From: Thermoanaerobaculia bacterium
GTDB lineage: Bacteria > Acidobacteriota > Thermoanaerobaculia > Gp7-AA8
DNA: 58,330 bases
Direction of reading: 5' to 3'
Assembly: GCA_036003305.1 (NCBI GenBank)
Contig: DASYSN010000021.1
Location: 1 to 58,330, forward strand
A program made the position numbers and the translations under genes. The number at the start of each line of letters is the position of its first letter. The first letter of the stretch is position 1. The notes under the pieces were generated by a model that did no database searches, was not told the origin of the DNA, and saw nothing but the letters and a program-made list of their open reading frames with translations. This document shows positions 2,083 through 51,953 of the stretch, in pieces.

Positions 2083-2792
2083 TATCCTCCCAGATAGGCC
2101 TTCTTCACCCGGTCGCTCGCGAGGAGCGCCTTCGTGTCGTCGTGCAGCACGATGCGGCCGGTTTCCATGACGTAGCCGCGGTGTGCGGTGACGAGCGCCA
2201 TGTGGGCGTTCTGTTCGACGAGGAGGATGGTCGTTCCTTCGGCGTTGATCTCGCGGATGACGCGGAAGATCGTCTGGACGAGCTGCGGAGCGAGGCCGAG
2301 CGAGGGCTCGTCGAGGAGCAGGACCTGCGGCTTCGACATCAGCGCGCGCGAGATCGCGAGCATCTGCTGCTCGCCGCCGGAGAGCGTTCCGGCGTTCTGC
2401 TTCAGGCGTTCCTTGATGACCGGGAAGAGCGAGAAGATCCGGTCGTACTCCTGCTTCGTGACCTTGTCTTTGCGGAGGTACGCGCCGAGCTCCAGGTTGT
2501 CGGAGACCGTCAGGTTCGCGAAGATCCCGCGGCCCTCGGGCACGTGCGAGATGCCTTTGGCCGTGATGATGTGCGGCTTCACGCCGGTGATGTCGCCGCC
2601 GTGAAAATGGACGCTGCCGTGCTTCGGCTTCAAAAGGCCGGAGATCGTCCGGAGCGTCGTCGTCTTTCCGGCGCCGTTCGCGCCGATGAGTGTGACGATC
2701 TCCCCTTCATTCACTTCGAGATCAATGCCGTGCAGCGCCTCGATCTCGCCGTACGAGACGCGGAGCTGGCTGACGGAGAGCATCGCCGTCAT
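2082..2792 (-). CDS. livF: Branched-chain amino acid ABC transporter ATP-binding protein LivF
   Basis: 236 aa with Walker A GANGAGKTT, signature LSGGEQQ and Walker B LLLDEPS. It overlaps livG by 4 nt. Confidence 0.9.
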   Translation of the reverse strand: MTAMLSVSQLRVSYGEIEALHGIDLEVNEGEIVTLIGANGAGKTTTLRTISGLLKPKHGSVHFHGGDITGVKPHIITAKGISHVPEGRGIFANLTVSDNLELGAYLRKDKVTKQEYDRIFSLFPVIKERLKQNAGTLSGGEQQMLAISRALMSKPQVLLLDEPSLGLAPQLVQTIFRVIREINAEGTTILLVEQNAHMALVTAHRGYVMETGRIVLHDDTKALLASDRVKKAYLGG

Positions 2793-3577
2793 GCGTGAGC
2801 CTCCACCGGCTCGCCGAGATACGCCTCGATGACGATCGGATTCGCCCGCACCTCGGCCGGCGTCCCATGCGCGATGACTTTCCCGAAGCTGAGCACCAGG
2901 ATCCGCTCGCAGATCCCCATCACCAGCTCCATGTTGTGCTCGATGAGGAGGATCGCGATGTCGAACCGGTCGCGGATGCCATGGATCGTCTCCATGAGGT
3001 CGAGCGTCTCGCGGTCGTTGAGCCCCGCGGCCGGCTCGTCGAGGAGCAGCAGGCGCGGACGCGCCGCCAAAGCGCGCGCGATCTCGAGCCGCCGCTGGTC
3101 GCCGTACGGGAGGTTCTTCGCGTACACCTGCGCCCGGTCGCGCAGGCCGAAGATCTCGAGGAGCTTCAGCGCGTCCTCCTCGGCAGCCGCTTCCGCGGCG
3201 GTGAAGCGATTCGTATGCAGGACGGCCGCGGTCGCGGAGTACTTGTAGTGGATATGCCCACCGATCTTGACGTTCTCCAGCACCGTGAGCTCTTTGAAGA
3301 GCCGGATGTTCTGGAACGTACGCGCGATGCCGAGGGCCGTGATCTCATTCGCCTTCAAATCGGCGGTCGGCGTACCGACGATCCGGATCGCTCCCTCGGT
3401 CGGCTTGTACACGCCGGTGAGCAGGTTGAAGATCGTCGTCTTGCCGGCGCCGTTCGGTCCGATCAGCCCGACCAGCTCGTGCTGCCGGATCTGCAGATTG
3501 AAATTGTCGACCGCCGTCAGTCCGCCGAAGCGGATCGTGACGTCGCTCGCGTCGAGCAGCGGCGCGTTGGTGCTCAT
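2789..3577 (-). CDS. livG: Branched-chain amino acid ABC transporter ATP-binding protein LivG
   Basis: Walker A GPNGAGKTT, signature LPYGDQRRLEIARAL and Walker B LLLDEPAAG. I prefer ATG at 3577 (GAGGGGG about 10 nt upstream) over the GTG at 3586 given in the ORF track. Confidence 0.88.
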   Translation of the reverse strand: MSTNAPLLDASDVTIRFGGLTAVDNFNLQIRQHELVGLIGPNGAGKTTIFNLLTGVYKPTEGAIRIVGTPTADLKANEITALGIARTFQNIRLFKELTVLENVKIGGHIHYKYSATAAVLHTNRFTAAEAAAEEDALKLLEIFGLRDRAQVYAKNLPYGDQRRLEIARALAARPRLLLLDEPAAGLNDRETLDLMETIHGIRDRFDIAILLIEHNMELVMGICERILVLSFGKVIAHGTPAEVRANPIVIEAYLGEPVEAHA

Positions 3578-3586
3578 GTGGCGCAC

Positions 3587-3727
3587 GCCCCCTCATCCGC
3601 CTTCGGCACCTTCTCCCCCGCGTCGCGGGGGAGAAGGCCGCTCGATGGGAAGGCATCGCGAGATCTATCAATCGAGAGCCCTTCGCCCCGCGAAGCGGGG
3701 AGAAGGTGCCGAAGGCGGATGAGGGGC
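3587..3727. repeat. MITE/REP-like palindromic element inside the liv operon
   Basis: A 29-nt perfect terminal inverted repeat, CCCCTCATCCGCCTTCGGCACCTTCTCCC (3588-3616), pairs with GGGAGAAGGTGCCGAAGGCGGATGAGGGG (3698-3726). Two internal mini-hairpins are present: CCCCGCGTCGCGGGG and CCCCGCGAAGCGGGG. The element fills the livG-livM spacer. Confidence 0.65.
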
Positions 3728-3743
3728 TCGTGCAATCTGACTC

Positions 3744-4784
3744 TCATTCGACTTCGCTCTGAGGCTCGACGTCTTTGCGGCGCGCGAGGACTTCCCACAG
3801 CTCGCGACGGCCGAAGATGCCTTGCGGGCGCGTGAGCATGAGGGTGATCAGCATCAGGGAGTAGATGACCATCCGGGGGTCTTTGCCGCCCGGGATGTAG
3901 TCCTTCACGGAGCGCAGGCCCTCGGGGAGGAACGTCAGGATGATCGCGGCGACGATCGAGCCGCTGATCGAGCCGAGACCGCCGAGGACCACCATTGCGA
4001 CGACCTCGAACGACTTGATGAACATGAACATCGTCGGGTTCAGGTACATCATGAAATGGGCGAACAGCCCGCCGGCGACTCCCGCGAGGAACGAGCCGAT
4101 GACGAACGCCTTCACCTTGTACTTCGTCGTATCGACGCCCATTGCCTCGGCGGCAATCTCGTCCTCGCGCACCGAAAGGAACGCGCGACCAACCGACGAC
4201 TTCACGAGCCGCCACGAGATCAACACCGTCACGACGACGAAGAAGTAAATCCAGAAGAAGTCCGCCCACTTCGGGATCCCGGACAAGCCACGCGCCCCGC
4301 CGATCTTGTCGATGTTCAGGATCAGCACGCGGATGATCTCGCCGAATCCGAGGGTGACGATCGCGAGGTAGTCACCGCGCAACCGCAGCGACGGCTGCCC
4401 GACGAGAAATCCCGCGACCGCCGCGAGCCCGCCACCGAGGAGCACGGACAGCAGCAGAAAGGCGTTCTGTGCCGCGAACTGCTGCGATCCCTCCGGCATC
4501 TTGTCGACGATCGGCGAGAAGTAGAAGAAGGTGAGAAACGCGGAGAAGTACGCGCCGACCGCCATGAAACCGGCGTGGCCGAGGGAGAACTGACCCGCGT
4601 GTCCGTTGATGATGTTCAGCGAGACCGCGAGGATGATGTTGATCCCCATCAGCACGATGACGCGCTTGTAGTACGCCATCCCGCCGATCGGAATGCGGTC
4701 GAGGCCGTAGCCGACGGCGAGCAGCACCACGATCGCGATCGCGAGACCTGCGATGTCGCGGAGCCACCATGGCAACCGGTTCAT
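3744..4784 (-). CDS. livM: Branched-chain amino acid ABC transporter permease LivM
   Basis: 346-aa polytopic membrane protein. It overlaps livH by 4 nt and occupies the expected position in the operon. Confidence 0.88.
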   Translation of the reverse strand: MNRLPWWLRDIAGLAIAIVVLLAVGYGLDRIPIGGMAYYKRVIVLMGINIILAVSLNIINGHAGQFSLGHAGFMAVGAYFSAFLTFFYFSPIVDKMPEGSQQFAAQNAFLLLSVLLGGGLAAVAGFLVGQPSLRLRGDYLAIVTLGFGEIIRVLILNIDKIGGARGLSGIPKWADFFWIYFFVVVTVLISWRLVKSSVGRAFLSVREDEIAAEAMGVDTTKYKVKAFVIGSFLAGVAGGLFAHFMMYLNPTMFMFIKSFEVVAMVVLGGLGSISGSIVAAIILTFLPEGLRSVKDYIPGGKDPRMVIYSLMLITLMLTRPQGIFGRRELWEVLARRKDVEPQSEVE

Positions 4785-5695
4785 ACTTTCTCCGCTTCGG
4801 ACTTCCCGAACAGGCCGCTGGGACGGAACAACAGGATGGCGATCAGGATCACGAACGCGATCGCGTCACGGTAGTTCGAGAACGAGCTGCCGCCGACGAA
4901 CGCCTCGACGATGCCGATGATCAGGCCGCCGACCACCGCCCCCGGCACGTTCCCGATCCCGCCGAGGACCGCGGCGACGAACGCCTTGAGTCCCGGCATG
5001 ATCCCCATCAGCGGATCGATCTTCGGGTACGAGAGGCCGTAGAGGATGCCGGCCACCGCCGCGAGGACGGAGCCGAGGACAAAGGTGATGGAGATGATGC
5101 GATCGGTCGGGATCCCCATCAACGACGCCGTCTCGAAGTGAAACGAGACGGCGCGCATGGCGCGGCCGAACTTCGTGCCGTAGATGATGTACTGCAGCAG
5201 CGCCATGAACACGAGCGCGACGCCGAGGACGATGAGCTGGTAGTTCGTCGTGACGATGCCGCCGAGGTGGACGATGTGCTTCGGAACGAGCGTCGGGAAG
5301 AACTTCGGATCGGGACCGAAGACGAACTGCCCGCCGTACTCGAGGAAGAACGAGACGCCGATCGCGGTGATCAGCGAGGCGATGCGCGGCGCGTTCCGGA
5401 GCGGCCGGTAGGCGATCCTCTCGTTGAGGTAGCCGAAGAGGCCGCACACGATCATCGCCAGCAGCATGATGCCGCCGGCGACGAACAAGGTCGGGGCGTT
5501 GTCCTCGCCGTGGATGTGCGCGGCAGCCCACCGGCCGGCGTAGTAGCCGGTGAAGCTGCCGAGCATGAAGACGTCGCCGTGCGCGAAGTTGATCAGCTTC
5601 AGGATGCCGTACACCATCGTGTACCCGAGGGCGATCAGCGCATAGATCGACCCGGCGGCAATCCCGTTGAGCAGGTTCTGGAGAAGGATCTGCAC
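4781..5695 (-). CDS. livH: Branched-chain amino acid ABC transporter permease LivH
   Basis: 304 aa. The N-terminus MQILLQNLLNGIAAGSIYALIALGYTMVYG is typical of LivH. Confidence 0.9.
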   Translation of the reverse strand: MQILLQNLLNGIAAGSIYALIALGYTMVYGILKLINFAHGDVFMLGSFTGYYAGRWAAAHIHGEDNAPTLFVAGGIMLLAMIVCGLFGYLNERIAYRPLRNAPRIASLITAIGVSFFLEYGGQFVFGPDPKFFPTLVPKHIVHLGGIVTTNYQLIVLGVALVFMALLQYIIYGTKFGRAMRAVSFHFETASLMGIPTDRIISITFVLGSVLAAVAGILYGLSYPKIDPLMGIMPGLKAFVAAVLGGIGNVPGAVVGGLIIGIVEAFVGGSSFSNYRDAIAFVILIAILLFRPSGLFGKSEAEKV

Positions 5696-6891
5696 TAGTG
5701 AGTTGCTGTTGCCGCTCCCGTAACGTTCTTCTGCGGGTCGACCGTCGCCTTCAGCGTGAGCTGGCCGCCCTTGACTTCTTCGATGACGAGCTTCTTGCCG
5801 ACGGCGTTCCGGTCGGGGCCGATGGTGATAGTGCCGGTGACGCCCTGGAAGTTCTTCGTCGCCGCGATGGCGTCGCGGATGTCGCTTCCCTTGGTCGATT
5901 TCGCGCGCTTGAGCGAGTCGGCGAGCACGCGCGCCGCGTCGTACGCGAGCGCCGCCATGCCGTCAGGCGTCGCGCCGAAACGGTCTTTGTACTTCTGCAC
6001 GAACTCGTGCACCATCGGCGCCGGATCGCCGTAGAAGTAGTGGTTCGAGTAGTACGACCCTTCGAGGGCCTTGCCGCCGATCTCGAGCAGCTTTGGCGAT
6101 TCCCAGCCATCGCCGCCGACGAGCGGCGCGTTGAGGCCAAGGTCGTGCTCCTGCTGCGCGATCTGGCCGATGTCGGTGTAGTAGCCCGGCACGAAGAGGA
6201 TCTGCGGATTCGACGCCTTGACGGTCGTGAGCTGCGCGCGGAAGTCGCTGTCGCCGTTCGCATAGCTGGCCCGCGCCACGATCTTGCCCCCGCCGGCCGT
6301 GAAGCGCTCCTCGAAGAAGTGGCCGAGGCCCTGCGAGTAGTCGCTCTTGACGTCGGTCAGCAGCGCCGCGTTCTTGACGCCCTCGCTGAGAACGTAGTCG
6401 GCGAGCGAGTGGCCCTGGTAGTCGTCCGTGTAGCAAGTGCGGAAGATGTAGTCGCCCTTTTTCGTGATCTCGGGGTTGGTCGACGACGGGGTGATCATCG
6501 GCACCTTGTTCTGCTGGCAGATCGGCGCCGCGGCGAGCGAGCACGACGACGCGACTTCGCCGAGGACCGCGACGACGTTGTTCTCGGAGATCAGCTTCGT
6601 CACGGCCGTGGCCGCCTCTTCCTGCTTCGACTGGTCGTCCTCGGTGATCACCTTGATCTTCTTGCCGTTGACGCCGCCGTTGGCGTTGATCTCGTCGATC
6701 GCCATCATGATGCCGTTGTGCGTCGACGTGCCGAACGTCCCCTGCGGACCGGTGAGCGACCCGTATTCACCGACGAGGATCTCGCCGCCGCCGGCGGTCG
6801 TCGTTCCGGTTCCGGTCTCAGACTTCGGCGCACAGCCGGCGACCGCGACCACGATCGCGCTGAACACCACCACGAATAAGTTTTTCTTCAT
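5695..6891 (-). CDS. livK: Branched-chain amino acid ABC transporter substrate-binding lipoprotein (LivJ/LivK family)
   Basis: The start is trimmed to MKKNLFVVVFSAIVVAVAGC (lipobox, ATG at 6889-6891). The body is type-I periplasmic binding protein-like. The longer ORF-track start reads through the hairpin repeat at 6964-7026. Confidence 0.88.
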   Translation of the reverse strand: MKKNLFVVVFSAIVVAVAGCAPKSETGTGTTTAGGGEILVGEYGSLTGPQGTFGTSTHNGIMMAIDEINANGGVNGKKIKVITEDDQSKQEEAATAVTKLISENNVVAVLGEVASSCSLAAAPICQQNKVPMITPSSTNPEITKKGDYIFRTCYTDDYQGHSLADYVLSEGVKNAALLTDVKSDYSQGLGHFFEERFTAGGGKIVARASYANGDSDFRAQLTTVKASNPQILFVPGYYTDIGQIAQQEHDLGLNAPLVGGDGWESPKLLEIGGKALEGSYYSNHYFYGDPAPMVHEFVQKYKDRFGATPDGMAALAYDAARVLADSLKRAKSTKGSDIRDAIAATKNFQGVTGTITIGPDRNAVGKKLVIEEVKGGQLTLKATVDPQKNVTGAATATH

Positions 6892-6963
6892 TGCGTATCC
6901 CTCTCGCAAAAAACGCGCGAATTCTATAGCACGGGCGTGCACGGCTGTTGCCACAAGCCGTAT

Positions 6964-7026
6964 GAGAGCGGAGAGGGGAGAGCGGAGACGGTGCGTCCTC
7001 TCCGCTCTCCGCTCTCCCATCTCCCC
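6964..7026. repeat. Heptamer-periodic hairpin element (GGAGAGC family, second copy)
   Basis: The arm GAGAGCGGAGAGGGGAGAGCGGAGA (6964-6988) faces TCTCCGCTCTCCGCTCTCCCATCTCCCC (about 6999-7026). The unit is the same as in the element at 329-418. Confidence 0.7.
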
Positions 7027-7027
7027 G

Positions 7028-8467
7028 CTAGAGGTTCACCCACACGCTCTTCGTCTGCGTGTACTTGTCGAGCGCGTCGCGGCCCTGGTCGCGGCCGAAG
7101 CCTGACTCCTTGAAGCCGCCGAACGGGAGCGCGGGGTCGTAGAGGTTGTAGGTGTTGATCCAGACGGTGCCGGCTTTGATGGCCCGCGCGATGCGGTGCG
7201 CTTTCGAGATGTCGCGGGTCCAGACGGCGGCCGCGAGACCGTAGACCGTCGCGTTTCCTTTCGCGACGGCGTCATCGGCATCGCTGAAACGGATGGTCGC
7301 GAGAACCGGGCCGAAGATCTCCTCGCGCGCGATCTTCGCGTCCGGCTGCACGTCGTCGAAGATCGTCGGTTTGACGAAGTAGCCTTTCCCTGTCCCGATG
7401 TCGGTCCGCTCGCCGCCGGCGACGAGCTTCGACTCGCTCTTCCCCGCTTCGATGTAGCGGAGGACGTTCTCCATCTGCTCTTTGGAGACGATCGCGCCGA
7501 GGCGCGTCTTCGGATGGAGCGGATCGCCGGCGACCATCTTGTTCGCGCGGTCGATCACCTTGGCCATCAGCTCGTCGTGCGCCGCGTCCTCGACCAGCAG
7601 CCGCGAACCGGCGGCGCAGACTTCGCCTTTTCCGTAGAAGATCGCGTTCAGGGCGCCGCGGGCGGCCGCATCGAGGTCGGCGTCGGCGAAGACGATGTTC
7701 GGCGACTTCCCTCCCAGCTCGAGCGAGACCTTCTTGAGTGTGTTCGCCGCGCGCGCCATGAGCTGGCGGCCGACTTCGGTCGAGCCGGTGAAGGCGATGG
7801 CGTCGATGCCGGGATGGTCGACCATCGCGTTACCGACGACGCTCCCCTTCCCCGGAATCACGTTCAGGACGCCGGCAGGAAGACCGCACTCTTTCGCGTA
7901 CTCGGCGAATTTGAGGAGCGAGAGCGACGTGTTCGACGCCGGTTTGATGACGACGGTGTTGCCGCACGCCAGCGCCGGGGCGATCTTCCAGACGGCGAGC
8001 ATGAGCGGGAAGTTCCACGGTGTGATCGCCCCGACGACGCCGATCGGCTCGCGCAGGGTGTAGGTGAACGCGTTGTCGGCGACCGGGATCGTCTCGCCGG
8101 TGACTTTGCCGCTCCATCCGGAGAAGTAGTAGAGGCACTCGGCGGCGGCAGGGGTATCGACGTACTGCGACTCGAAGATCGGCTTGCCGTTGTCGATCGT
8201 CTCGATCTTCCCGATCTCCTCGGCGCGCGCACTGAGCATCTCGGCGATGCGGAAGAGGATCTTGCCGCGGTCACGCGGCTTCATCTTCTGCCACTCGCTC
8301 CCCGGCTCCATCTGCGCCCGCGCCGCGCGGACCGCCTTATCGACGTCGTCCGCGCCCGCCGACGCGACGTCGGTGATCTTTTCCTCGGTGGCAGGGTTGG
8401 ACGTGACGAACGTCTCGCCCGAGCCGGCGTCAACGAATTCGCCGTTGATGAAGAGCTGGTTCTGCAT
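7028..8467 (-). CDS. NAD(P)-dependent aldehyde dehydrogenase
   Basis: The start is trimmed to MQNQLFINGEFVDAGSG (ATG at 8465-8467). Motifs ELGGKSP and a catalytic Cys context KGEVCAAGSR are present. Confidence 0.9.
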   Translation of the reverse strand: MQNQLFINGEFVDAGSGETFVTSNPATEEKITDVASAGADDVDKAVRAARAQMEPGSEWQKMKPRDRGKILFRIAEMLSARAEEIGKIETIDNGKPIFESQYVDTPAAAECLYYFSGWSGKVTGETIPVADNAFTYTLREPIGVVGAITPWNFPLMLAVWKIAPALACGNTVVIKPASNTSLSLLKFAEYAKECGLPAGVLNVIPGKGSVVGNAMVDHPGIDAIAFTGSTEVGRQLMARAANTLKKVSLELGGKSPNIVFADADLDAAARGALNAIFYGKGEVCAAGSRLLVEDAAHDELMAKVIDRANKMVAGDPLHPKTRLGAIVSKEQMENVLRYIEAGKSESKLVAGGERTDIGTGKGYFVKPTIFDDVQPDAKIAREEIFGPVLATIRFSDADDAVAKGNATVYGLAAAVWTRDISKAHRIARAIKAGTVWINTYNLYDPALPFGGFKESGFGRDQGRDALDKYTQTKSVWVNL

Positions 8468-8486
8468 GCGGCGCGAATGGTATCGC

Positions 8487-8515
8487 GTCCGAGTCCTCGG
8501 TCCTCGGTCCTCGGG
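8487..8515. repeat. Heptamer tandem repeat GTCCTCG x3-4 (single arm)
   Basis: The sequence is GTCCGAGTCCTCGGTCCTCGGTCCTCGGG. The unit matches both arms of the hairpin at 57059-57126, but no complementary arm lies nearby. Confidence 0.7.
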
Positions 8516-8522
8516 TTTCCTA

Positions 8523-8837
8523 TCAGAAGCGCCGCAAACGCTCCACGAGATACTCGGGCCGCCTTCGCTTGTGAGCGAACGCGGCGATTTCAATGCGATC
8601 ACCGAGGTCGATGAACACGACATGATACGGGAAGTTATGTACCGGCATCCGTCTGACGGCGAGATCGTCGATGCCCGGCACACGGCTTCCGATGTTCGGA
8701 AAGCGGCCGATCAGCTCGAGGATCCGACCGGTCTCGGCGGTGAACCTCGCCGCAACTCTCTCGTCACGATCGCGATACCAGCGGGCGGCGTCGCGGAACT
8801 CCTCGCGCGCCGGATCGGAGATCGTAACCGGCTTCAA
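8523..8837 (-). CDS. Type II toxin, ParE/RelE family
   Basis: 104 aa with ParE-like features (AREEFRDAARWY..., ...HVVFIDLGDRIEIAAFAHKRRRP). It overlaps the upstream small ORF by 4 nt. Confidence 0.8.
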   Translation of the reverse strand: MKPVTISDPAREEFRDAARWYRDRDERVAARFTAETGRILELIGRFPNIGSRVPGIDDLAVRRMPVHNFPYHVVFIDLGDRIEIAAFAHKRRRPEYLVERLRRF

Positions 8838-9067
8838 CGACCGAGGACTTCGCGTTCGACCTCAGCGAGGACGACGCGCCAGTCCGTGCTCCCCACCTCG
8901 CCTGCCCGGATCGCCGCGACACGTTTCTCGATCTCAGCAGCCCACGCCGCCTCCACCGCTTCTTCCGTGTCTTCCAGGCTCTCGAGCAGGTCGGCCGCTA
9001 ACCGGGCGCGCTCTGTTTGCGGCAGACGCAGCGCCTCATCCCGGAGTTTTTCGGCGGTCAGCGGCAT
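8834..9067 (-). CDS. Antitoxin, putative addiction-module component (TIGR02574-like)
   Basis: 77 aa. The pattern LRLPQTERARLAADLLESLEDT...AAWAAEIEKRVAAIRAGEV is typical of this antitoxin family. It is translationally coupled to the ParE-like gene. Confidence 0.75.
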   Translation of the reverse strand: MPLTAEKLRDEALRLPQTERARLAADLLESLEDTEEAVEAAWAAEIEKRVAAIRAGEVGSTDWRVVLAEVEREVLGR

Positions 9068-9126
9068 GAACGCATCGTAGCATGCCGCCCCTTTGGGACG
9101 TTCACCGAGGCGAGGCTCGGTGAGTT

Positions 9127-10629
9127 CTACCGGAGCTTTCGTGCCGCTCGCGCCGTATGGTCGCGAAGAGCACGAGTCATCTCCGTCACGCGATCTTCGA
9201 AGGCCGCATCAAGTCTGAAATCGAGGCAATGAAAGTCGGCGAGCGCATCCGGGAGCTCGCAGTCGCCACAACGGAGAGGAAGAATCTCGATTTCGCCTTG
9301 GTCGCGGACATTCAAAGCTTCGTCGATCTCTCGCCGTACCCAGTCGCTCTTGACAGCGTGTTCGGTCAATACCACCGCGAAGGAGTGACATCCCCCGATT
9401 GCATCTTCGATCGTCTTTCGCACCGGGTTCCCAGCCCTCATCCGATGTTCGTCACGCCATACCTTCACGCTCCTCCTTCGAAGGCCGCGGCTCAATCGAT
9501 CGACGAGTGCACCATCCTGCCGTGAGTAGCTTATGAAAACATCGTACGGTTTCTTGCGAGCAAGCTCGATGAGCTTCCCTTCCGGTTCGAGTAAATCGAG
9601 ATCGCCGTATCGTTGTCCGAGAACTGGCAGTAGACCATCGACAAACTGCTGCGGCGACAAAGGACACATGTACACGCCGCGTCGTGCCCAATAATCTGGC
9701 TGGCGGTCGCCGGGGGCGCAATTAGCGACCTTGACGGCCGCCATCGAGAAGGTCCGTAACCGGAGAACACACTCTGCTTCCCAGGGCGCAAAGTCGAGCA
9801 GCAAGAGGTCTCGCCGCTCCAGCATCTCGGCGATGTTCTCAACCCGGGTCGTGTCAGAGGCGAGCAGCGACTTCAGACCACCCGTGAAGCCGGTTGCAGC
9901 TCGCGCGGTGCCAATTACGTAGAAGACGTGCGGACGGCCTACCTCGGCTACTTCCCACTCCCCAACTCTCATGCTCATCTCATCGTGAACAATTGGGATT
10001 TTTCCCACTTCGAGGAGGGCCTTCGTCAGTGACCGGTCTAGCGTGGCGTCGATGAAATTCGTAATTGGAAGTCGCGCAATCGAACGGTGGGCATCAGTCA
10101 CTTTGACATTTGCAAGGAGAGCAGCGACGGCATCGTGAACTGCCTGTCTTCCTCGCCGCTTTTCGGCCTTCTCGACAAACTCATCCCACTTTTCAAAGTA
10201 GTCGTTCTCGTCACGCGCATGCCAACCGACCTTGAGGCGTTCGTTTATCTGAACGCCGACATTCGGGAGCGACGCTGCGGGTGCCAGCGACGCACCAACA
10301 GCGACTGCGAGGTCATCATTGATCGCGGCTTCCCAGAATCGACCGAGAAAGGCGTCCGTCTCGATTAATTCGACTCGTCGCGAGATCCGGTCTAGGGTCG
10401 TGATTGCAGCCGGGACACCTGCTACCGCTGCCGCACAGGTGCGGTGAAGCTCGTGTGCTTCGGTTCTGTCTCGAACCGAATTGATGTATGCGGAGAACTC
10501 AACCGCATCCGAATATGGAACCGGAATCGAGAACTGTTCGTCGCCGCGCCTGAAAGTCATATGCACGCGGCACCGCGCAACGTCACGATAGCCGTAGTAA
10601 CTGAGTCCGAGTAGTCGATGAAGGACCAC
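9127..10629 (-). CDS. SIR2-like (DHS-like NAD-binding) region fused to a C-terminal TIR domain
   Basis: 500-aa ORF. The TIR domain covers aa 360-475: YDVFISYSRQDG...FAVVLTEHAVKSDWVRREIDEAL, with Glu434 in the catalytic position. SIR2_2-like motifs lie at aa 95-300: DLAVAVGASLAPAASLPN, PITNFIDATLDRSL and RDLLLLDFAPWEAEC. An alternative ATG start lies at 10560. GC is lower than in the flanking genes. Confidence 0.75.
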   Translation of the reverse strand: MVLHRLLGLSYYGYRDVARCRVHMTFRRGDEQFSIPVPYSDAVEFSAYINSVRDRTEAHELHRTCAAAVAGVPAAITTLDRISRRVELIETDAFLGRFWEAAINDDLAVAVGASLAPAASLPNVGVQINERLKVGWHARDENDYFEKWDEFVEKAEKRRGRQAVHDAVAALLANVKVTDAHRSIARLPITNFIDATLDRSLTKALLEVGKIPIVHDEMSMRVGEWEVAEVGRPHVFYVIGTARAATGFTGGLKSLLASDTTRVENIAEMLERRDLLLLDFAPWEAECVLRLRTFSMAAVKVANCAPGDRQPDYWARRGVYMCPLSPQQFVDGLLPVLGQRYGDLDLLEPEGKLIELARKKPYDVFISYSRQDGALVDRLSRGLRRRSVKVWRDEHRMRAGNPVRKTIEDAIGGCHSFAVVLTEHAVKSDWVRREIDEALNVRDQGEIEILPLRCGDCELPDALADFHCLDFRLDAAFEDRVTEMTRALRDHTARAARKLR

Positions 10630-11739
10630 CTACGCCGTGACCGCCTCCTCCACGTAAGGCTTCACGTCGAAGCCACGGACGTACATCTGGTGAATCCGCT
10701 CCATCTCCTCGTCGGTCAGCGGCGCGTGATTCGAGGCGCCGGCGAACTCTTCGAGCTGTTCGTGGTTGTAGATGTTCGGGAGCGCCGAGATGATCGACGG
10801 GTGGGCGTAGAGCCAGAGCAAGGCGAGCTGGCCGATCGTGACTCCGCGCTCCGCGCACAGCGGCTTGAGGCGCTCGATCTTCTGGATCCCTTCCACCAGC
10901 CAGGCGCGCGGACGGTGGGAGCGGTGGTCACTCTCGTCGAACTTCGTGTCGATCGTGTACTGCCCTTCGAGCATGCCGGACGAATGCGTCACGCGGATGA
11001 GGAACTGCGGATCGGGATTCGCCTTCCAGGCGCGGAACGAGTGGTCGAATGACGATGTCGTCGAGCACTCCTTCTTGCTGCTCTTCCCTTCCATCGCTTC
11101 GCCAACAGCCGGATACGACGCGCCGCGGTCGGCCGCGAGGATGAACTCGCGTCCCGGATCCTGCTCCAGGATGTTGTAGATCATCTGGGTCACCGGCGCG
11201 CGGCGGACGGCGTTCGCATAGATCCCCTCGTCGCGCCAGCCGATCGCCGGCCCGAGCGACGGCCCATACGACGAGATCTTCCCCTCGGCTTTGAGCGACT
11301 CGAGCGTGTCCCAGTGCTCGTCGGTCATGAGCGTGGTGACGCGCGGGTTGTGCGGCTGGTAGATCGCGATGTGGTCCGTGCCGAGGCGCTGGAGCGACTG
11401 CTCGCAGGCGAAGCGGATGAACTTCGGCGAGAAGTCCTGCGGCAGCTCGCGCTGGCCGCGCGGGCGTTCGGGATTATTGTAGAAGTCGTAGCCGAACTTC
11501 GTGCCGACGTGGACCTCCGAGTGCTCCTTCAGCAGCGGAGCGAGCGCGGTCTCGCCGCGGCCGTTGCCGTATGCATCAGCAGTGTCGATGTAGTTGATGC
11601 CGCGATCGATCGCGGAGGAGATGATCGCCCTCGCCTCGTCGTCGGTGTAGGTCCCCCACCAGCCGGTCGTGAGCGTCCATGTTCCGAACCCGAGCTCGGA
11701 AACTTTGATGTCGGTACCGTGAATCGTCCTGTAGCGCAT
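10630..11739 (-). CDS. Aldo/keto reductase family oxidoreductase
   Basis: 369 aa. The N-terminus is MRYRTIHGTDIKVSELGFGTWTL..., and IDTADAYGNGRGE is an AKR hallmark. Confidence 0.88.
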   Translation of the reverse strand: MRYRTIHGTDIKVSELGFGTWTLTTGWWGTYTDDEARAIISSAIDRGINYIDTADAYGNGRGETALAPLLKEHSEVHVGTKFGYDFYNNPERPRGQRELPQDFSPKFIRFACEQSLQRLGTDHIAIYQPHNPRVTTLMTDEHWDTLESLKAEGKISSYGPSLGPAIGWRDEGIYANAVRRAPVTQMIYNILEQDPGREFILAADRGASYPAVGEAMEGKSSKKECSTTSSFDHSFRAWKANPDPQFLIRVTHSSGMLEGQYTIDTKFDESDHRSHRPRAWLVEGIQKIERLKPLCAERGVTIGQLALLWLYAHPSIISALPNIYNHEQLEEFAGASNHAPLTDEEMERIHQMYVRGFDVKPYVEEAVTA

Positions 11740-11803
11740 TCAGGAACGATAGCAAATCCGGTGCGCCGACCGCCCCGTACATCGGGGTGGGAGGACGATA
11801 CAG

Positions 11804-12088
11804 ATGGCTACGGTAATGCTGATGCACTGGCCGGACGTGACGAAGGAGCAGTACGAGCAGATCCGGAAGGATGTTCGCTGGGAAACGGACGTCCCTGCCG
11901 GAGCGAAGTTCCACACCGCCTGGTTCGCCGACGACGGCCTGCACGTCTTCGACCTCTGGGACTCGCCGCAGCAGTTCCAGAACTTCGTGAACACGCGCCT
12001 CGGCCCCGCCACGCAGCAGATCGGGATCAAGGGTCAGCCGAAGGTGGAGCTGTCGGACGCCCACGCCGTCTTCGCGCCGAACGTCTAG
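11804..12088 (+). CDS. Small conserved-looking hypothetical protein (94 aa)
   Basis: ATG is preceded by GGGAGGA. The composition is balanced, with no low-complexity sequence. It is convergent with the paralog array. Confidence 0.65.
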   Translation: MATVMLMHWPDVTKEQYEQIRKDVRWETDVPAGAKFHTAWFADDGLHVFDLWDSPQQFQNFVNTRLGPATQQIGIKGQPKVELSDAHAVFAPNV

Positions 12089-12109
12089 TGACGGGCGGCG
12101 CGGCGCATG

Positions 12110-13441
12110 TCAGTGATGGGCGGCGCGTTGGCGCGTTGGTTTGATGACGGTCAAGGGCGTCGTGTAGACCCGTTGCCCGCCGTCGAAGCGCCAGAGGACC
12201 GTGTACTCGCCCGCGGGTAGCGGAGCGACGGTCGTCTTGAACGTTTGGCAGCCAGGGCCATCGATCCCTCCCTCCGGGAACGAGTACATTCCGACGTCCA
12301 CCGTGATGGTGTGTCCGTCGACGTGCGTTGCCAACACGGTCCGCCGTTCGGGGTCGGGGGGAAGGATATTCAGCGTGACGTCGACCGGCGCGCTCTCGAA
12401 CGCCGTTGGGTTCAGCAGCCCGCCCGGATCGGACGTGCATTGCACAGTGCCGTTCTGCCAGGAGAACGAGAATGGCAGCGTGCCCCAATATGAATGGACC
12501 TCGTTGACGTTGACGTCGTACCACCACGCCACTTGGTGGTATCCGTCGGTAATCGGCCCAAGATTGAGCTCCTCCGCGTGACAGATCGCCGACGACGGCG
12601 CCGCACCGGAAGCCATGGCGTTTGCAGTGTCGGCGACAGTCTGGGAGACGGTGATGGACCCCGGCCAATCGTCGTCAATCCCGGTCACCGTCGGAGGGCC
12701 GAACGCGGGCGTATACCCTCGATAGGAATCCTCGATGTGAAGCCGCGCGGTCCCACCGGGCATGGGTGTGATCGTCGACCTGCCGGTACACGTGGATGTC
12801 GGCGCAGGCTGCTGGACCATGAAACGGAACCGGATTTCCGACCAGTTGACGTTGTAAAGTTCCGGGGCCGGCCAGGTGACGTTGTAAGTGCCCTCCGGCA
12901 AAATACCGAGGTCGAGCACGGAGATCTTGCAGTTCGTTCTCGGACCCTGGTACTCCGAGATGTAGATATCGTTGCCGGAGAAGTAAGCGACCGCCGGATT
13001 CTGTGAGCATGAGTCGACCTCCAGCCTGACCGGCCGGTCCGGAAGCGCCGGAAGGACAAGGTTGATGAGCTCTGCCGAGCGAGGCTGACCCGTTGCGAGC
13101 GTACCGACTAAGAACGGGAACGTGGAGCGCTGGGTCGTGAAGTTGACGTTGTCGTTCCACGTGACATTGAAACGGCCGGCGCCGAGGTAGCCGAGATCGA
13201 TTGTGTCGTCGACGCAGCTCACGTCCGTAGCGGAGCCGCCGGAGAGAGTCCGGGTCACCGTGATGTTGGTGCCGGCAATCGACACCACCGGTGTGGATCG
13301 CGTCGCGCCGGCGGCCACTGGCGCGCTGTACTTCACGACGATGTGATCGGCCGTGACGATGCTGAACCCGCCGCAGGTGACGGCAAGGGCGGCGCGGGTG
13401 GCGCCGAGGAGAAAGAGCGAAAGCAGAACGAGGCGTCTCAT
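12110..13441 (-). CDS. Secreted Cys-rich four-module protein, paralog 1
   Basis: 443 aa with signal peptide MRRLVLLSLFLLGATRAALA, then VTCGGFSIV. It carries 8 Cys, four modules each ending in a G-x-Y/F-x-V-x-W motif, and the tail KPTRQRAAHH. Confidence 0.8.
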   Translation of the reverse strand: MRRLVLLSLFLLGATRAALAVTCGGFSIVTADHIVVKYSAPVAAGATRSTPVVSIAGTNITVTRTLSGGSATDVSCVDDTIDLGYLGAGRFNVTWNDNVNFTTQRSTFPFLVGTLATGQPRSAELINLVLPALPDRPVRLEVDSCSQNPAVAYFSGNDIYISEYQGPRTNCKISVLDLGILPEGTYNVTWPAPELYNVNWSEIRFRFMVQQPAPTSTCTGRSTITPMPGGTARLHIEDSYRGYTPAFGPPTVTGIDDDWPGSITVSQTVADTANAMASGAAPSSAICHAEELNLGPITDGYHQVAWWYDVNVNEVHSYWGTLPFSFSWQNGTVQCTSDPGGLLNPTAFESAPVDVTLNILPPDPERRTVLATHVDGHTITVDVGMYSFPEGGIDGPGCQTFKTTVAPLPAGEYTVLWRFDGGQRVYTTPLTVIKPTRQRAAHH

Positions 13442-13442
13442 G

Positions 13443-14734
13443 TCAGTGATGGGCGGCGCGCTGACGCGTCGGTTTGACGATGGTCAAGGGCGTCGTGATG
13501 ATCTGTCGGTCGCGGTCGAAGCGCCAGACGACCGTGTATTCGCCCGCTGGCAGCGGAGCGACGTTCGCTTGATACGTCTGGCAGGAGGGAAGAGAATCGC
13601 TCGGCCCCTCGAAGAACGTTCCGATGTCCACGGTGATGGTGTGTCCCTCGACGTGCACTGCCGTCGTCCACTGCCATCCGAGATATAGGTAGAGGAAATT
13701 CACCGCGAGCTTGACTGGCGCGCCTTCGACCGCTGATGGCGTCAGTAGCACACCGGGATCCGACGAGCATTGCACCGTTCCGTTCTGCGAGAGAAACGAG
13801 AATGGGAACGCGTTCGTGTAGGACTCGGAACCGCCGGCGTTGACGTGGTACCACCACCAGACCTGATGGTAGCCGTCGGAGAGCGGCTCGAGGTTGAGCT
13901 CCTCCGCGTGACAGATCGGCGAAGACGGCGGCGCCCCGGGCACAAAGCTCTTCGCGGTGTCCGCGACAGGTTGAACGACTGTGAACATCGAAGGCCAATC
14001 GTCAATCTGCGTCACCGTCGGGAGCCCGAAGGTGGGCGTATAGCCGGGATAGGGATCCTCGAAGTGAAGCCGCGCTGCCCCACCGGGCATGGGTGTGATC
14101 GTCGATCTGCCGGTACACGGCGACGTGGGCCCCGGCTGCTGCACCATGAACCGGACGCCAACTCCCGGTACCCCCCAGGTGACGTTGTAAGTTCCCGCGG
14201 GCAAGACACCGAGATCGAGCACCGAGAGCCTGCAGCTCGTTTTCGGACCCTGGTACTCCGAAACGTAAATGTCGTTGCCGGAGGCGTACGCAACGGCCGG
14301 ATTCGTAAAGCACGAATCGACCTCCAGCCGGACCGGCCGGTCCGGAAGCGCCGGAGGAACAACGTCGACGAAGTCTCCTGTATAGCCTGTGGCGGGCGCG
14401 CCGACCGAGAATGTGAACGTCGCACGGCGGGTCGTGAGGCCGACGTTGTCGTCCCAAGTGACGTTGAAACGGCCGGCGCCGAGGTAACCGAGATCGATCG
14501 TGTCGTCGACGCAGCTCACGTCCGTCGCCGCGCCGCCGGAGAGAGTCCGCGTGACCGTGATGTTGGTGCCGACCGTCGACACGACCGGTTGGATCGAGTC
14601 GCGCCGGTGGCCACCGGCGCGCTGTACTTCACGACGATGTGATCGGCCGTCACGATGCTGAACCCGCCGCAGGTCACGGCGAATGCGGCGCGGGCGCCGA
14701 CGAGAAGGAACGACAGCAGAAGGAGACGTCTCAT
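13443..14734 (-). pseudogene. Secreted Cys-rich four-module protein, paralog 2, interrupted by a 1-nt frameshift
   Basis: ORF 14516-14734 encodes the signal peptide through ...VKYSAPVATGATRS. ORF 13443-14582 continues with VSTVGTNITVTRTL... in another frame. Comparison with paralog 1 (RSTPVVSIAGTN) places a missing C in AACCGG at about 14585-14588. Confidence 0.7.
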
Positions 14735-14750
14735 CTTGTCTCTATATGCG

Positions 14751-16100
14751 TTAGTGATGTGTTGCGCGTTGGCGCGTTGGTTTGACGACGGTGAGATGCG
14801 CCGTTGTCAGGGGGCGGGCGGGAGTGCCGGCAGGCGTCAGCAAGCGCCAGATCACGGTGTACTCGCCGGCGCTGAGCGTCGTCAGGTTCGTCTCGTATGT
14901 CGAGCACCAGTCGGGCGGGGAAGGCGGGAGCGGGCCCTCCCATGGCACCGGCGTGAGATCCAGAGTGATCGTCTGTCCGCTCACCTTGCTCGTCACCGCA
15001 AACGCGAATCCGCCGATGAACGTCACACCGAGCTTGATCGTCCCCTCGTAGGCGGGCGAGGGCGTGATCGCGCGCGGGAACGTGGAGCACTGCACCGATC
15101 CGTTCACCCACCGGAACGCGATGAAATCGCTATAACGGAAACCCGTATTGAATCCGTAGACGCTGATCTGGTCGTACCAGCGGATCTCGTTGAAACCCTC
15201 ATCCGGAGTGCCGAGATCGAGATCCTCTCCATGGCAGATCGCGGTCGCACCCGTCGCCGCTTTTGAGCTGTCCGCCGTGTCTGCCACCTGCTGGATCACA
15301 GTAATGACCGGCCAGGCGGCGCCAGGATTAATAGGATCGACGTACTTCGAAATATCGGTCACGGTCGGGAAACCGAAGGTGGGCGAGTAGCCCATCGTTG
15401 AATGTTCGTAGTGCAGTCGAGCGGTCCCTTGCGCCGTTCGCGTCACGGAAGACTCGTCGCTGCACGGAGATGTCGCTGCCGGCTGCTGCACGACGAAACG
15501 AAACGAGCTCGACGCCGGCGGGCTGAACATGGCGTCGACACGCGTGGTGGTGACGTTGTATGTGGCCGCCGGCAATGGTCCGAAGTCGAGGACGTACAAC
15601 CTGCACGTGGAACCGGCGCCGAATTGAGAGATGTTGATGTCATTGCCGGACAGGTACGCGACCGCAGGACTCAGCGAACACGCATTCACCTCGAGCCGGA
15701 CGGACTGGCCCGGGAGAGCAGGCGGAAGCACGGAGGTCGTGTCGACCGTGCCGGTTGCGGGAGCGCCGACGAAGAACGTGAAGCTCGAGCGCCGGCTGGT
15801 CAGATCGACATTGTCGTTCCAGGTGAGGTTGAAGCGCCCCGCGCCGAGGGAGCCGAGATCGGCCATGTCATCGACGCAACTCTCGCCGGTCGATGAGCCG
15901 CCGGAAACGTTGCGCGTCACGGTCACCTCCGTACCCATCACGGAAACCGCGGGTACCGAGTGCGTCGCACCTGTCGCCAGCGGCGCGCTGTACTTCACGA
16001 GCACATGATCGGCCGGAACGACGCTGAATCCGCCGCACGTGACGGCGAGCGCGGCGCGGGCGCCGAGGAGGATTACCGAAAGGAGAAGGAGGCGTCTCAT
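14751..16100 (-). CDS. Secreted Cys-rich four-module protein, paralog 3
   Basis: 449 aa with the same signal peptide/VTCGGFSVV head and the same tail KPTRQRATHH. It lies 16 nt from paralog 2. Confidence 0.8.
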   Translation of the reverse strand: MRRLLLLSVILLGARAALAVTCGGFSVVPADHVLVKYSAPLATGATHSVPAVSVMGTEVTVTRNVSGGSSTGESCVDDMADLGSLGAGRFNLTWNDNVDLTSRRSSFTFFVGAPATGTVDTTSVLPPALPGQSVRLEVNACSLSPAVAYLSGNDINISQFGAGSTCRLYVLDFGPLPAATYNVTTTRVDAMFSPPASSSFRFVVQQPAATSPCSDESSVTRTAQGTARLHYEHSTMGYSPTFGFPTVTDISKYVDPINPGAAWPVITVIQQVADTADSSKAATGATAICHGEDLDLGTPDEGFNEIRWYDQISVYGFNTGFRYSDFIAFRWVNGSVQCSTFPRAITPSPAYEGTIKLGVTFIGGFAFAVTSKVSGQTITLDLTPVPWEGPLPPSPPDWCSTYETNLTTLSAGEYTVIWRLLTPAGTPARPLTTAHLTVVKPTRQRATHH

Positions 16101-51398: not shown

Positions 51399-51513
51399 CT
51401 TGATCGAAGCTCGCGAAGGGTAGTGAAACCCACCCGTGCAGTCAATAGTCAAGGCGGTTAACGGGGGGTTGGGCACTCTAATTCCGAGGCTCGCGCCGCG
51501 TGTCCGAGAGCGC

Positions 51514-51870
51514 GGACACGAGGTCAGACGCGCGGACATGATGTCCGACGCGCGGACATGATGTCCGAGGTGCGGACACGATGTCCGAGGCTCCGGACAC
51601 GATGTCCGAGGCTCCGGACACGACGTCCGACACTCCGGACATGCGGTCCGACGTTCCGGACACGAGGTCCGAGGCTCCGGACACGCGGTCCGACGTTCCG
51701 GACACGAGGTCCGACGTTCCGGACACGAGGGTCTGAGGCTCCGGACACGAGGTCCGACGCTCCGGACACGAGGTCGGACGCTTCGGACACGAGGTCCGAC
51801 GTTCCGGACACGAGGTCCGGGACTCCGGACACGAGGGCCGGCGTTCCGGGACACGGCGACCGAGGTGCCC
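51514..51870. repeat. Tandem array of about 17 units, period 20-22 bp (mostly 21), core GGACAYGAKGTCC
   Basis: Unit starts traced by hand are 51514, 51534, 51554, 51574, 51595, 51616, 51637, 51658, 51679, 51700, 51721, 51743, 51764, 51785, 51806, 51827 and 51848. Each unit holds the imperfect palindrome CGGAC-N5-GTCCG. The array degenerates towards 51900. Confidence 0.85.
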
Positions 51871-51953
51871 GACGTGGGGTACGAGGCTTGGGACGTGACG
51901 TCCGCGCCTCCGACACGACTGCCAAATCCGTGATCGAGCGGCTTCGCGTCGCG

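Follow-up and report, generated by a model that had tools for sequence, protein, structure and literature searches.

A rare bacterial protein family joining a degenerate SIR2-like domain to a TIR domain: a candidate stand-alone immune effector in an accessory-gene hotspot

The stretch of DNA analyzed here, henceforth the window, comprises 58,330 nucleotides from a Thermoanaerobaculia bacterium of the Acidobacteriota (assembly GCA_036003305.1, contig DASYSN010000021.1, positions 1 to 58,330), and it carries on its minus strand a gene, hereafter the fusion gene, whose predicted product combines a central SIR2-like domain with a C-terminal TIR domain. Lacking both catalytic residues of SIR2 NADases, the SIR2-like domain is most likely a pseudo-enzyme that regulates the TIR NADase, since the SIR2 asparagine and histidine are replaced across the whole family while the TIR glutamate is retained. 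Sequence comparison and structural modelling lead us to propose that the fusion gene may encode a stand-alone, single-polypeptide TIR effector of the immune or abortive-infection type, with the SIR2-like domain as its regulator, a reading to which we assign a probability of about 0.55. From the comparisons presented below we infer that this protein acts as an NADase, that its SIR2-like domain regulates this activity and that it works against phages.

Results

The C-terminal domain (aa 364-479, encoded at 9193..9540 of the minus strand) belongs to the PdTIR/TcpB/AbTir-like TIR_2 type. It matches the Pfam TIR_2 model (PF13676) with E=7.3e-25 and 88.3 bits against a cut-off of 28, and its best PADLOC match is to the TIR domain of TIR-SAVED CBASS effectors. 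The nearest solved structures are those of PdTIR (3h16, E=7.5e-14), TcpB/BtpA and AbTir, with the TIR domains of Cat1 and SARM1 also among the matches. The segment DWVRREIDEA aligns with the W..(Y/K/R)E(L)D motif of PdTIR, TcpB and AbTir, and Glu434 (codon 9328..9330) can hence be taken as the equivalent of the TIR catalytic glutamate, as had been claimed in a preliminary description of this DNA. Of 32 family sequences, 31 retain the glutamate, and the remaining one (P0010) departs from the alignment of the family over the TIR region.

These affinities bear directly on an alternative in which the TIR domain would make a messenger of the cyclic ADP-ribose (cADPR) type for an effector encoded elsewhere, as ThsB does, leaving the dead SIR2 domain as a sensor of infection. 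AbTir, TcpB and PdTIR are established producers of cADPR isomers, and the Pfam ThsB_TIR model gives a weak match to the fusion protein, both of which would fit such a role. However, PADLOC scores the TIR-SAVED effector type (E=1.9e-17) far better than ThsB-type models (E of at least 9e-7), no partner gene is conserved, with neighbors differing in every context examined, and in one related locus (L054) the fusion gene is the sole cargo between its flanking genes. We therefore regard a signal-generating role as unlikely.

The central domain (aa 91-335; 9625..10359, minus strand) is a SIR2-like Rossmann domain of the defense type found in ThsA and DSR2, in a catalytically degenerate form. It escapes detection by Pfam, including SIR2_2 (PF13289), and by NCBIfam even at E<=1, and by these profiles the fusion protein is placed outside the curated Pfam SIR2_2 boundary. 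The profile searches advised in the preliminary description thus recovered TIR_2 but missed SIR2_2, and a family profile and hhalign were needed to detect the SIR2 domain. The PADLOC matches to ThsA (E ~0.0035) span only profile positions 5-130, which correspond to its SIR2 part, and a profile built from the family matches ThsA among PDB sequences, with E=8.3e-6 for SeThsA (7uxt) and ~0.003 for BcThsA (8bto/6lhx). Aligned by hhalign with P0039, a canonical SIR2_2 protein (Pfam E=7e-26), a 19-sequence alignment of the N-terminal region reaches 93% probability and E=3.3e-7 over 237 columns, covering the entire SIR2_2 domain.

The structural check points the same way. An AlphaFold2 model of aa 24-361, computed from the 19-sequence alignment, has a mean predicted local distance difference test score (pLDDT) of 83.7 and a predicted template modelling score (pTM) of 0.80, and the top 50 Foldseek matches of this model in the PDB are all defense-type SIR2 domains: ThsA from three species, KomC, DSR2 and the SIR2-APAZ protein of SPARSA, with probability 1.00, E down to 3.6e-7 and template modelling (TM) scores up to 0.66 on the target. 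The presence of a SIR2 fold at aa ~91-335 is thus as well established as a computational analysis can make it.

In active SIR2 domains of this type, catalysis depends on the asparagine of the TTNYD motif and the histidine of the K-I-H-G motif, N112 and H152 in ThsA, and mutating either of them abolishes NADase activity in ThsA and likewise in the human homologue FAM118B (bioRxiv 10.1101/2024.09.18.613514). Three profile alignments set the asparagine opposite T196 of the fusion protein (DATLDR; codon 10042..10044), and not opposite N191, an assignment anchored by the helix that follows (YDRLIEKAL in ThsA, LDRSLTKAL here). The histidine aligns with I239 (codon 9913..9915), hhalign pairing VF-Y-V-I-G with vf-k-i-H-g. 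Residues at these positions were tabulated over 49 family sequences, made up of database proteins and translations from genomic loci, some 40 of which cover the SIR2 catalytic positions. The asparagine position holds threonine in 32 sequences, serine in 8 and asparagine in none, and the histidine position is occupied by L, F, I or M, but never by H.

The motif series proposed in the preliminary description can be revised in this light. Its G-loop (AVAVGAS) and the strand that comes after it (RDLLLLDF....EAE, the counterpart of lFIGYSlsD) both stand, but the segment it had equated with TTNYD places N191 where T196 belongs. Its remark that the histidine was missing from VFYVIGT, and its suspicion that the SIR2-like half was not an enzyme, are borne out by the family-wide replacements.

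The domain nevertheless looks far from abandoned by selection. The best-conserved motifs of the family (the G-loop, SNFID..DR, P.VF, DLLL....EAE and YW.RGV) coincide with the NAD-pocket motifs of active SIR2s, which we take as a sign that the pocket, in other words ligand binding, is probably still under selection. N191, five residues upstream of the true asparagine equivalent, is nearly invariant (N in 39 of 41 sequences), as is D194 (D in 38 of 40), and together they mark the family signature SNFID, on the strand that precedes the former catalytic loop (N191-F-I-D194, codons 10048..10059).

It is this signature that could lend credit to a double NADase, in which the SIR2-like domain would remain enzymatic through relocated residues, such as N191 and D194, and the protein would hold two NAD-consuming sites. 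The two residues lie five and two positions before the canonical asparagine, the pocket motifs stay conserved, and the preliminary description had itself aligned TNFID to TTNYD. Against this, the canonical asparagine falls opposite T/S196 in three independent, helix-anchored profile alignments, neither a histidine nor any alternative general base is conserved in or around the histidine position, and NFID lies within a predicted strand, which would put N191 in mid-strand and outside the catalytic loop. Given also that asparagine and histidine are both essential in ThsA and FAM118B (bioRxiv 10.1101/2024.09.18.613514), a second active site appears improbable.

The complete open reading frame (ORF) of the fusion gene runs from a GTG start to a stop codon at 9127-9129 (9127..10629, minus strand, 500 aa). 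The identical protein in public databases (P0001, 'MAG TPA: toll/interleukin-1 receptor domain-containing protein [Thermoanaerobaculia bacterium]') has 477 aa and starts at Met24. The 23 residues ahead of Met24 (..RLLGLSYYGYRDVARCRVH..; window 10558-10629) are conserved in frame in the homologues of loci L003 and L028. In the window, the GTG directly abuts the stop codon of the upstream aldo/keto reductase (AKR) gene (TAG-GTG), and the two signals likewise abut or overlap in the homologous loci (GTGTGA in L028, TGATG in L003). Owing to this in-frame conservation and to the starts that abut or overlap the AKR stop, the 500-aa reading is to be preferred, and the public annotation is probably 23 codons too short. 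The same arrangement implies translational coupling of the fusion gene to the upstream AKR gene. A promoter/terminator scan around the fusion gene was uninformative, giving no promoter-like sites and terminator-like sites only at chance expectation.

The first 90 residues (10360..10629, minus strand) form an N-terminal extension that is present only in a clade of long forms and is absent from short forms of 410-430 aa in the alignment. Modelling predicts a beta-hairpin followed by four helices (pLDDT 62-88). In keeping with the preliminary description, which had recognized no motif there, the N-terminal ~90 residues have no Pfam match and the first 103 residues no PDB sequence match.

The family to which the fusion protein belongs is very rare. 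A word-indexed search of 5.8 billion clusters returned only five homologues, and an exhaustive search of 1.84 billion representatives with a profile of the N-terminal region retrieved 35 proteins, the only match from outside the family being the canonical SIR2_2 protein P0039. The family alignment includes 17 intact full-length members, every one of which has the N-terminal domain followed by TIR, and the fusion of the two is, as judged from these sequences, obligate across the family. Most of the 17 are short forms (408-433 aa) that lack the first ~70-90 residues. Scanned with a six-sequence short-form alignment, the GTDB species representatives yield seven short forms, four in Acidobacteriota, one in Syntrophobacteraceae and two in Verrucomicrobiota; a five-sequence long-form alignment finds no match in the same collection. 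The taxonomic spread of the family is patchy. No match to aa 1-355 was found in the INPHARED phage or PLSDB plasmid collections, and IMG/VR holds a single contig with a family member (L092). The family is known so far almost entirely from metagenomes, since all its named members come from metagenome-assembled genomes (MAGs), to which only this IMG/VR contig can be added.

On the minus strand of the window, the order of genes is AKR (10630-11739), the fusion gene, an antitoxin, a ParE toxin and an aldehyde dehydrogenase (ALDH, starting at 8467). The antitoxin (8834..9067, minus strand; Unstab_antitox/TIGR02574, Pfam E=5e-14) and the ParE-family toxin (8523..8837, minus strand; Pfam ParE_toxin E=4.4e-8) overlap by 4 nt and make up a type II ParE toxin-antitoxin (TA) module. 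The closest relative (L012), with AKR and ALDH 95% and 97% identical, has an empty site in which the two genes lie 12 nt apart. Comparison of the two junctions (...GTCACGGCGTAA-G-ATTCGCGCCGC-ATG in L012, ...GTCACGGCGTAG-[2.15 kb]-ATTCGCGCCGC-ATG in the window) delimits an insert of 2.15 kb at ~8479-10629 (8479..10629), bounded by the AKR stop codon and the 11-nt ALDH leader ATTCGCGCCGC.

Base composition agrees with an exogenous source. The fusion gene is the stretch of 1.5 kb with the lowest GC content in the 58-kb window (0.576, against a mean of 0.645 and a standard deviation of 0.020), and its GC content at third codon positions (GC3) is 0.61, as compared with 0.89 and 0.90 in the two flanking genes and with intermediate values (0.73-0.75) in the TA genes. 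The GC counts made by hand in the preliminary description proved exact (30/60 at 9961-10020, 33/60 at 10081-10140 and 42/60 at 10801-10860), and the foreign origin it had drawn from them is strongly supported by low GC and GC3 together with the exact empty site in the closest relative.

The closest homologues (47-51% identical) also reside downstream of the same AKR, and in three contigs the gene lies between AKR and ALDH. These shared flanks suggested a conserved housekeeping context, which the preliminary description had set against its own proposal of a defense gene. To appraise this context, we surveyed 80 metagenomic loci with AKR orthologues 77-95% identical, 59 of which hold both AKR and ALDH. 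In 29 of these loci the two genes are directly adjacent, only 6-273 bp apart, and among the occupied loci 10 have inserts of 0.65-1.2 kb, 17 of 1.2-3.2 kb and 3 of more than 3.2 kb, the largest being of ~6 kb. With about half of the 59 loci empty and the rest carrying varied cargo, the survey overturns the first impression: the AKR-ALDH junction is a hotspot of accessory-gene turnover and integration in this lineage, and a conserved housekeeping context was rejected.

Other occupied sites carry PIN toxins, a Fic/DOC protein and ParE modules, all confirmed by Pfam, as well as cargo identified by reading of the sequences: a predicted rhodanese-like protein together with a secreted metalloprotease, a predicted membrane protein of 750 aa, an ABC transporter and a sulfate-activation enzyme, among others. 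Another occupied site (L064, 9035-11179, minus strand) has two adjoining cargo genes (363 and 344 aa) without Pfam match beside a PIN toxin gene, and this pair could be another accessory or defense module.

Three further fusion genes were located at the hotspot, in L028 (51% identical), L054 (40%) and L050 (37%). The fusion gene of L054 is alone between AKR and ALDH, with no TA pair, and in L050 it lies 4 kb from AKR, behind other cargo, and the TA pair is again absent. Between the window and L001, AKR and ALDH are 80.5% and 89% identical, as opposed to 51% for the fusion protein, 46% for the ParE toxin and 43% for the antitoxin, and by these comparisons the fusion gene appears to be fast-evolving or repeatedly exchanged cargo. 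The TA pair, encoded in the window (8523-9067) on the same strand as the fusion gene, is inverted in L001 (11508-12037). The toxin-antitoxin pair pointed out by the preliminary description is real, but it is not a conserved partner, and we rejected it as part of the system on account of its absence from L050 and L054, its inversion in L001 and its independent divergence.

The survey also decides the case of the AKR as a functional partner, a reading in which translational coupling would reflect a metabolic unit of two genes. In its favor, the window, L003 and L028 all have the start of the fusion gene abutting or overlapping the stop of AKR, AKR lies upstream in the window, L001/L002, L003 and L054, and NAD(P)H is known to serve AKR enzymes as a cofactor. 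Nonetheless, AKR is a conserved core gene in the 80 loci that is directly followed by ALDH in 29 of 59, the site is empty in the closest relative, and the fusion gene of L050 is separated from AKR by other cargo. GC3 is discordant between the two genes (0.61 vs 0.89), and the neighbors of P0005 and of all short forms are unrelated. A partnership with AKR is largely refuted by the empty sites, and we hold it to be extremely improbable.

More distant relatives offer a view of the family away from this hotspot. In a Syntrophobacteraceae MAG (L006, 2154-6952), a complete QatABCD system lies immediately downstream of a short-form member (PADLOC: QatA 2e-104, QatB 2.5e-8, QatC 6e-101, QatD 1e-60), with an ankyrin-repeat protein upstream. 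Other members are found near another TIR_2 protein and a Mu-type transposase (L007), near a PIN toxin (L009), near an integrase fragment and a second TIR protein (L004), and between an RHS-AHH toxin of 1154 aa on one side and a ThsB-like TIR protein on the other (L008). The only member on a predicted (pro)viral contig (L092 = IMGVR_UViG_2917587430_000001, 2713-9248, GC 0.43) has a caspase-like (Peptidase_C14) protein of 634 aa and an alpha/beta-hydrolase ~3-5 kb upstream. In this small sample the surroundings are consistently of the defense or conflict type, in line with the neighborhood check proposed in the preliminary description.

Two of these loci are of some interest in themselves. The ThsB-like TIR protein of L008 (204 aa) precedes a protein of 210 aa for which an N-terminal membrane segment is predicted (11283-12529), and the two may constitute an uncharacterized Thoeris-like pair. 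The combination of TIR and caspase in L092 is the pairing of type IV Thoeris, but here the genes are not adjacent.

Conflict-type surroundings could also befit a protein outside immunity, that is, a selfish or competitive toxin (an addiction module or an inter-bacterial effector) or a regulator of NAD homeostasis that travels with mobile cargo. The co-residence of a ParE TA pair in both the window and L001, the RHS-AHH polymorphic toxin near the L008 member and the mixed cargo of the hotspot would all be compatible with this. On the other hand, scans with Pfam, PADLOC and NCBIfam detected no secretion signal or toxin-delivery domain in the fusion protein, no cognate immunity or antitoxin gene is conserved beside the fusion gene, as seen in L054, and relatives occur next to bona fide anti-phage systems such as QatABCD. 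A role of this kind is, in our judgment, quite unlikely.

Three further features of the window lie outside the insert. A tandem array at 51513-51919, with a 21-bp unit (CGGACACGAGGTCCGACGCTC) in 16.4 copies with 85% matches and a higher-order period of 148 bp, yields a spurious 'GPRVRS' repeat ORF. An ORF of 1395 aa (42730-46917, plus strand), possibly an effector-type gene, has as its sole Pfam match a patatin-like phospholipase segment (aa 250-303, E=2.7e-7). Finally, three tandem paralogues of 443, 379 and 449 aa (12110-16100, minus strand), with no meaningful Pfam match and with signal-peptide-like N-termini in two of the three, look locally duplicated.

Discussion

Bacterial TIR effectors such as TIR-SAVED, TIR-STING, Cat1 and SPARTA, as well as SARM1, gain activity only once they have been assembled through a sensor domain, and the immune reading of the fusion protein adopts this logic. 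The C-terminal TIR domain, with Glu434, would act as the executioner, cleaving NAD+ as an oligomer and thereby halting the growth of the infected cell, while the central domain, presumably descended from SIR2 NADases of the ThsA/DSR2 type, would hold the TIR off at rest. The trigger might be either a phage protein or, in the former NAD pocket, a ligand resembling a nucleotide, and the triggered SIR2-like domain would then drive the assembly of the oligomer or filament required for TIR activity. Available accounts of ThsA, KomC and FAM118B indicate that defense SIR2 domains commonly form filaments or oligomers. In long forms, the N-terminal module of ~90 residues probably adds to or tunes trigger specificity. 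The gene would have arrived by horizontal transfer, in a small insert shared with an unrelated ParE TA pair, and would be read through from the upstream AKR via translational coupling.

The conserved pocket invites a more specific version of this scheme, in which the dead SIR2 domain would be a small-molecule receptor derived from the NAD pocket, and sensor, receptor and executioner would be united in one polypeptide as a self-amplifying 'one-chain Thoeris'. This is a tentative proposal that we consider unlikely. What the domain senses would be metabolites derived from NAD+: by analogy with the ARM domain of SARM1, an imbalance of NAD+, ADP-ribose (ADPR) or nicotinamide mononucleotide (NMN) caused by the phage, or else a cADPR-type product of its own TIR. 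An ancestral effector domain would in this way have been reused as the receptor.

Several observations weigh against the proposal of a TIR effector regulated by a SIR2-like domain. The glycine of the G-loop varies (VSS, IST or ISS in some members), and nucleotide binding is perhaps not kept everywhere. A full-length model built from five sequences has a pLDDT of 58 and is unusable for the N-terminal two thirds, so that neither the SIR2-TIR interface nor an oligomer can be read from it. The TIR part alone matches PADLOC models, and the whole protein matches none. Moreover, the nearest counterparts of the TIR domain are enzymes of the AbTir type, which produce cADPR isomers, and a signalling rather than a depleting role is therefore possible. 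As regards genomic context, defense genes are not the sole cargo of the hotspot, where proteases, membrane proteins, an ABC transporter and a sulfate-activation enzyme occur as well, and residence in it implies by itself no defense function, while the neighborhood sample amounts to about a dozen genomic contexts, too few for a statistical assessment of defense-island enrichment.

Among known systems, the closest to the central domain is ThsA, the SIR2-SLOG effector of type I Thoeris (6lhx, 8bto, 7uxt), both by profile (E=8e-6) and by fold (Foldseek E=3.6e-7). Like ThsA, which published work describes as activated by filament formation, the fusion protein consists of a SIR2-type fold and a second nucleotide-related module, but the roles appear to be inverted: ThsA relies on its SIR2 domain as the NADase (N112/H152) and on SLOG as the sensor, whereas here the enzyme would be the fused TIR. 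The fusion protein does not qualify as a Thoeris component, as the fusion gene stands by itself with no adjoining ThsB, and Pfam, PADLOC and NCBIfam gave no SLOG or Macro match. Nor does it fit DSR1/DSR2, SIR2-HerA, SPARSA or Kongming, with no partner gene in the insert, no PADLOC match and the catalytic dyad absent.

In its overall design, the fusion protein resembles TIR-SAVED (CBASS), TIR-STING, Cat1 (CARF-TIR) and the TIR-APAZ of SPARTA, in all of which a TIR NADase domain is joined to, or partnered with, a non-catalytic sensor. In the logic proposed here, as in these sensor-TIR effectors, binding of a trigger to the sensor would lead to oligomers that deplete NAD+. As opposed to them, the putative sensor here is a degenerate SIR2 fold and not SAVED, STING, CARF or APAZ, and no cyclase, CRISPR or Argonaute partner is encoded nearby in the window or in the hotspot loci examined. 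For the control of a TIR by a former NAD-binding domain, the best analogy is SARM1 (ARM-SAM-TIR) of animals, whose TIR NADase is allosterically gated by a non-catalytic, NAD+- or NMN-binding domain of the same chain. The regulatory folds are unrelated, however (ARM repeats as opposed to Rossmann/SIR2), the fusion protein has no SAM oligomerization domain, and ligand binding is here a conjecture.

Stand-alone TIR proteins with an N-terminal non-TIR part are also known, namely SpbK and AbTir/TcpB/PdTIR, and one report (PMC12847820) describes SpbK as an abortive-infection NADase that is encoded by a single gene and set off by a phage protein. The N-terminal parts of these proteins are nonetheless coiled-coil or unrelated domains with no SIR2 fold. 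SIR2-type folds have precedents among immune proteins in SAMD9/SAMD9L and FAM118B (animal SIRim), none of which is fused to TIR. SAMD9 is reported to carry a 'variant Sir2' domain (PMC5445408), within a multi-domain STAND architecture that is quite different from the fusion protein. FAM118B retains N163/H206 and is an active NADase, and in 73% of metazoans its gene is linked in the genome to that of the TIR adaptor TIRAP, an unfused association of SIR2 and TIR (bioRxiv 10.1101/2024.09.18.613514). A review of defense domains has SIR2 and TIR in separate proteins or fused to other modules, and we found in the literature searched no description of a SIR2-TIR fusion or of a pseudo-SIR2 regulator, in accordance with the preliminary description, to whose author the architecture was likewise not known to be characterized. 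What seems new in this family, as far as its sequences allow one to judge, is thus an undescribed pseudo-sirtuin regulatory domain, and what seems familiar is the overall logic of a sensor joined to a TIR NADase.

Bacterial immunity destroys NAD mainly by way of two enzyme domains, SIR2 and TIR, and this family fuses both, with one of them apparently switched off. If our reading is correct, an immune effector domain would have been turned into a pseudo-enzyme that regulates another effector, a turn of events that recalls SARM1 and the pairing of FAM118B with TIRAP. Should the dead pocket still bind a nucleotide, the family would provide a compact system in which to study the gating of TIR NADases, and possibly a new ligand-receptor pair. 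More generally, the AKR-ALDH hotspot of soil Acidobacteriota constitutes a convenient natural catalogue in which further accessory and defense genes of an uncultured lineage may be sought.

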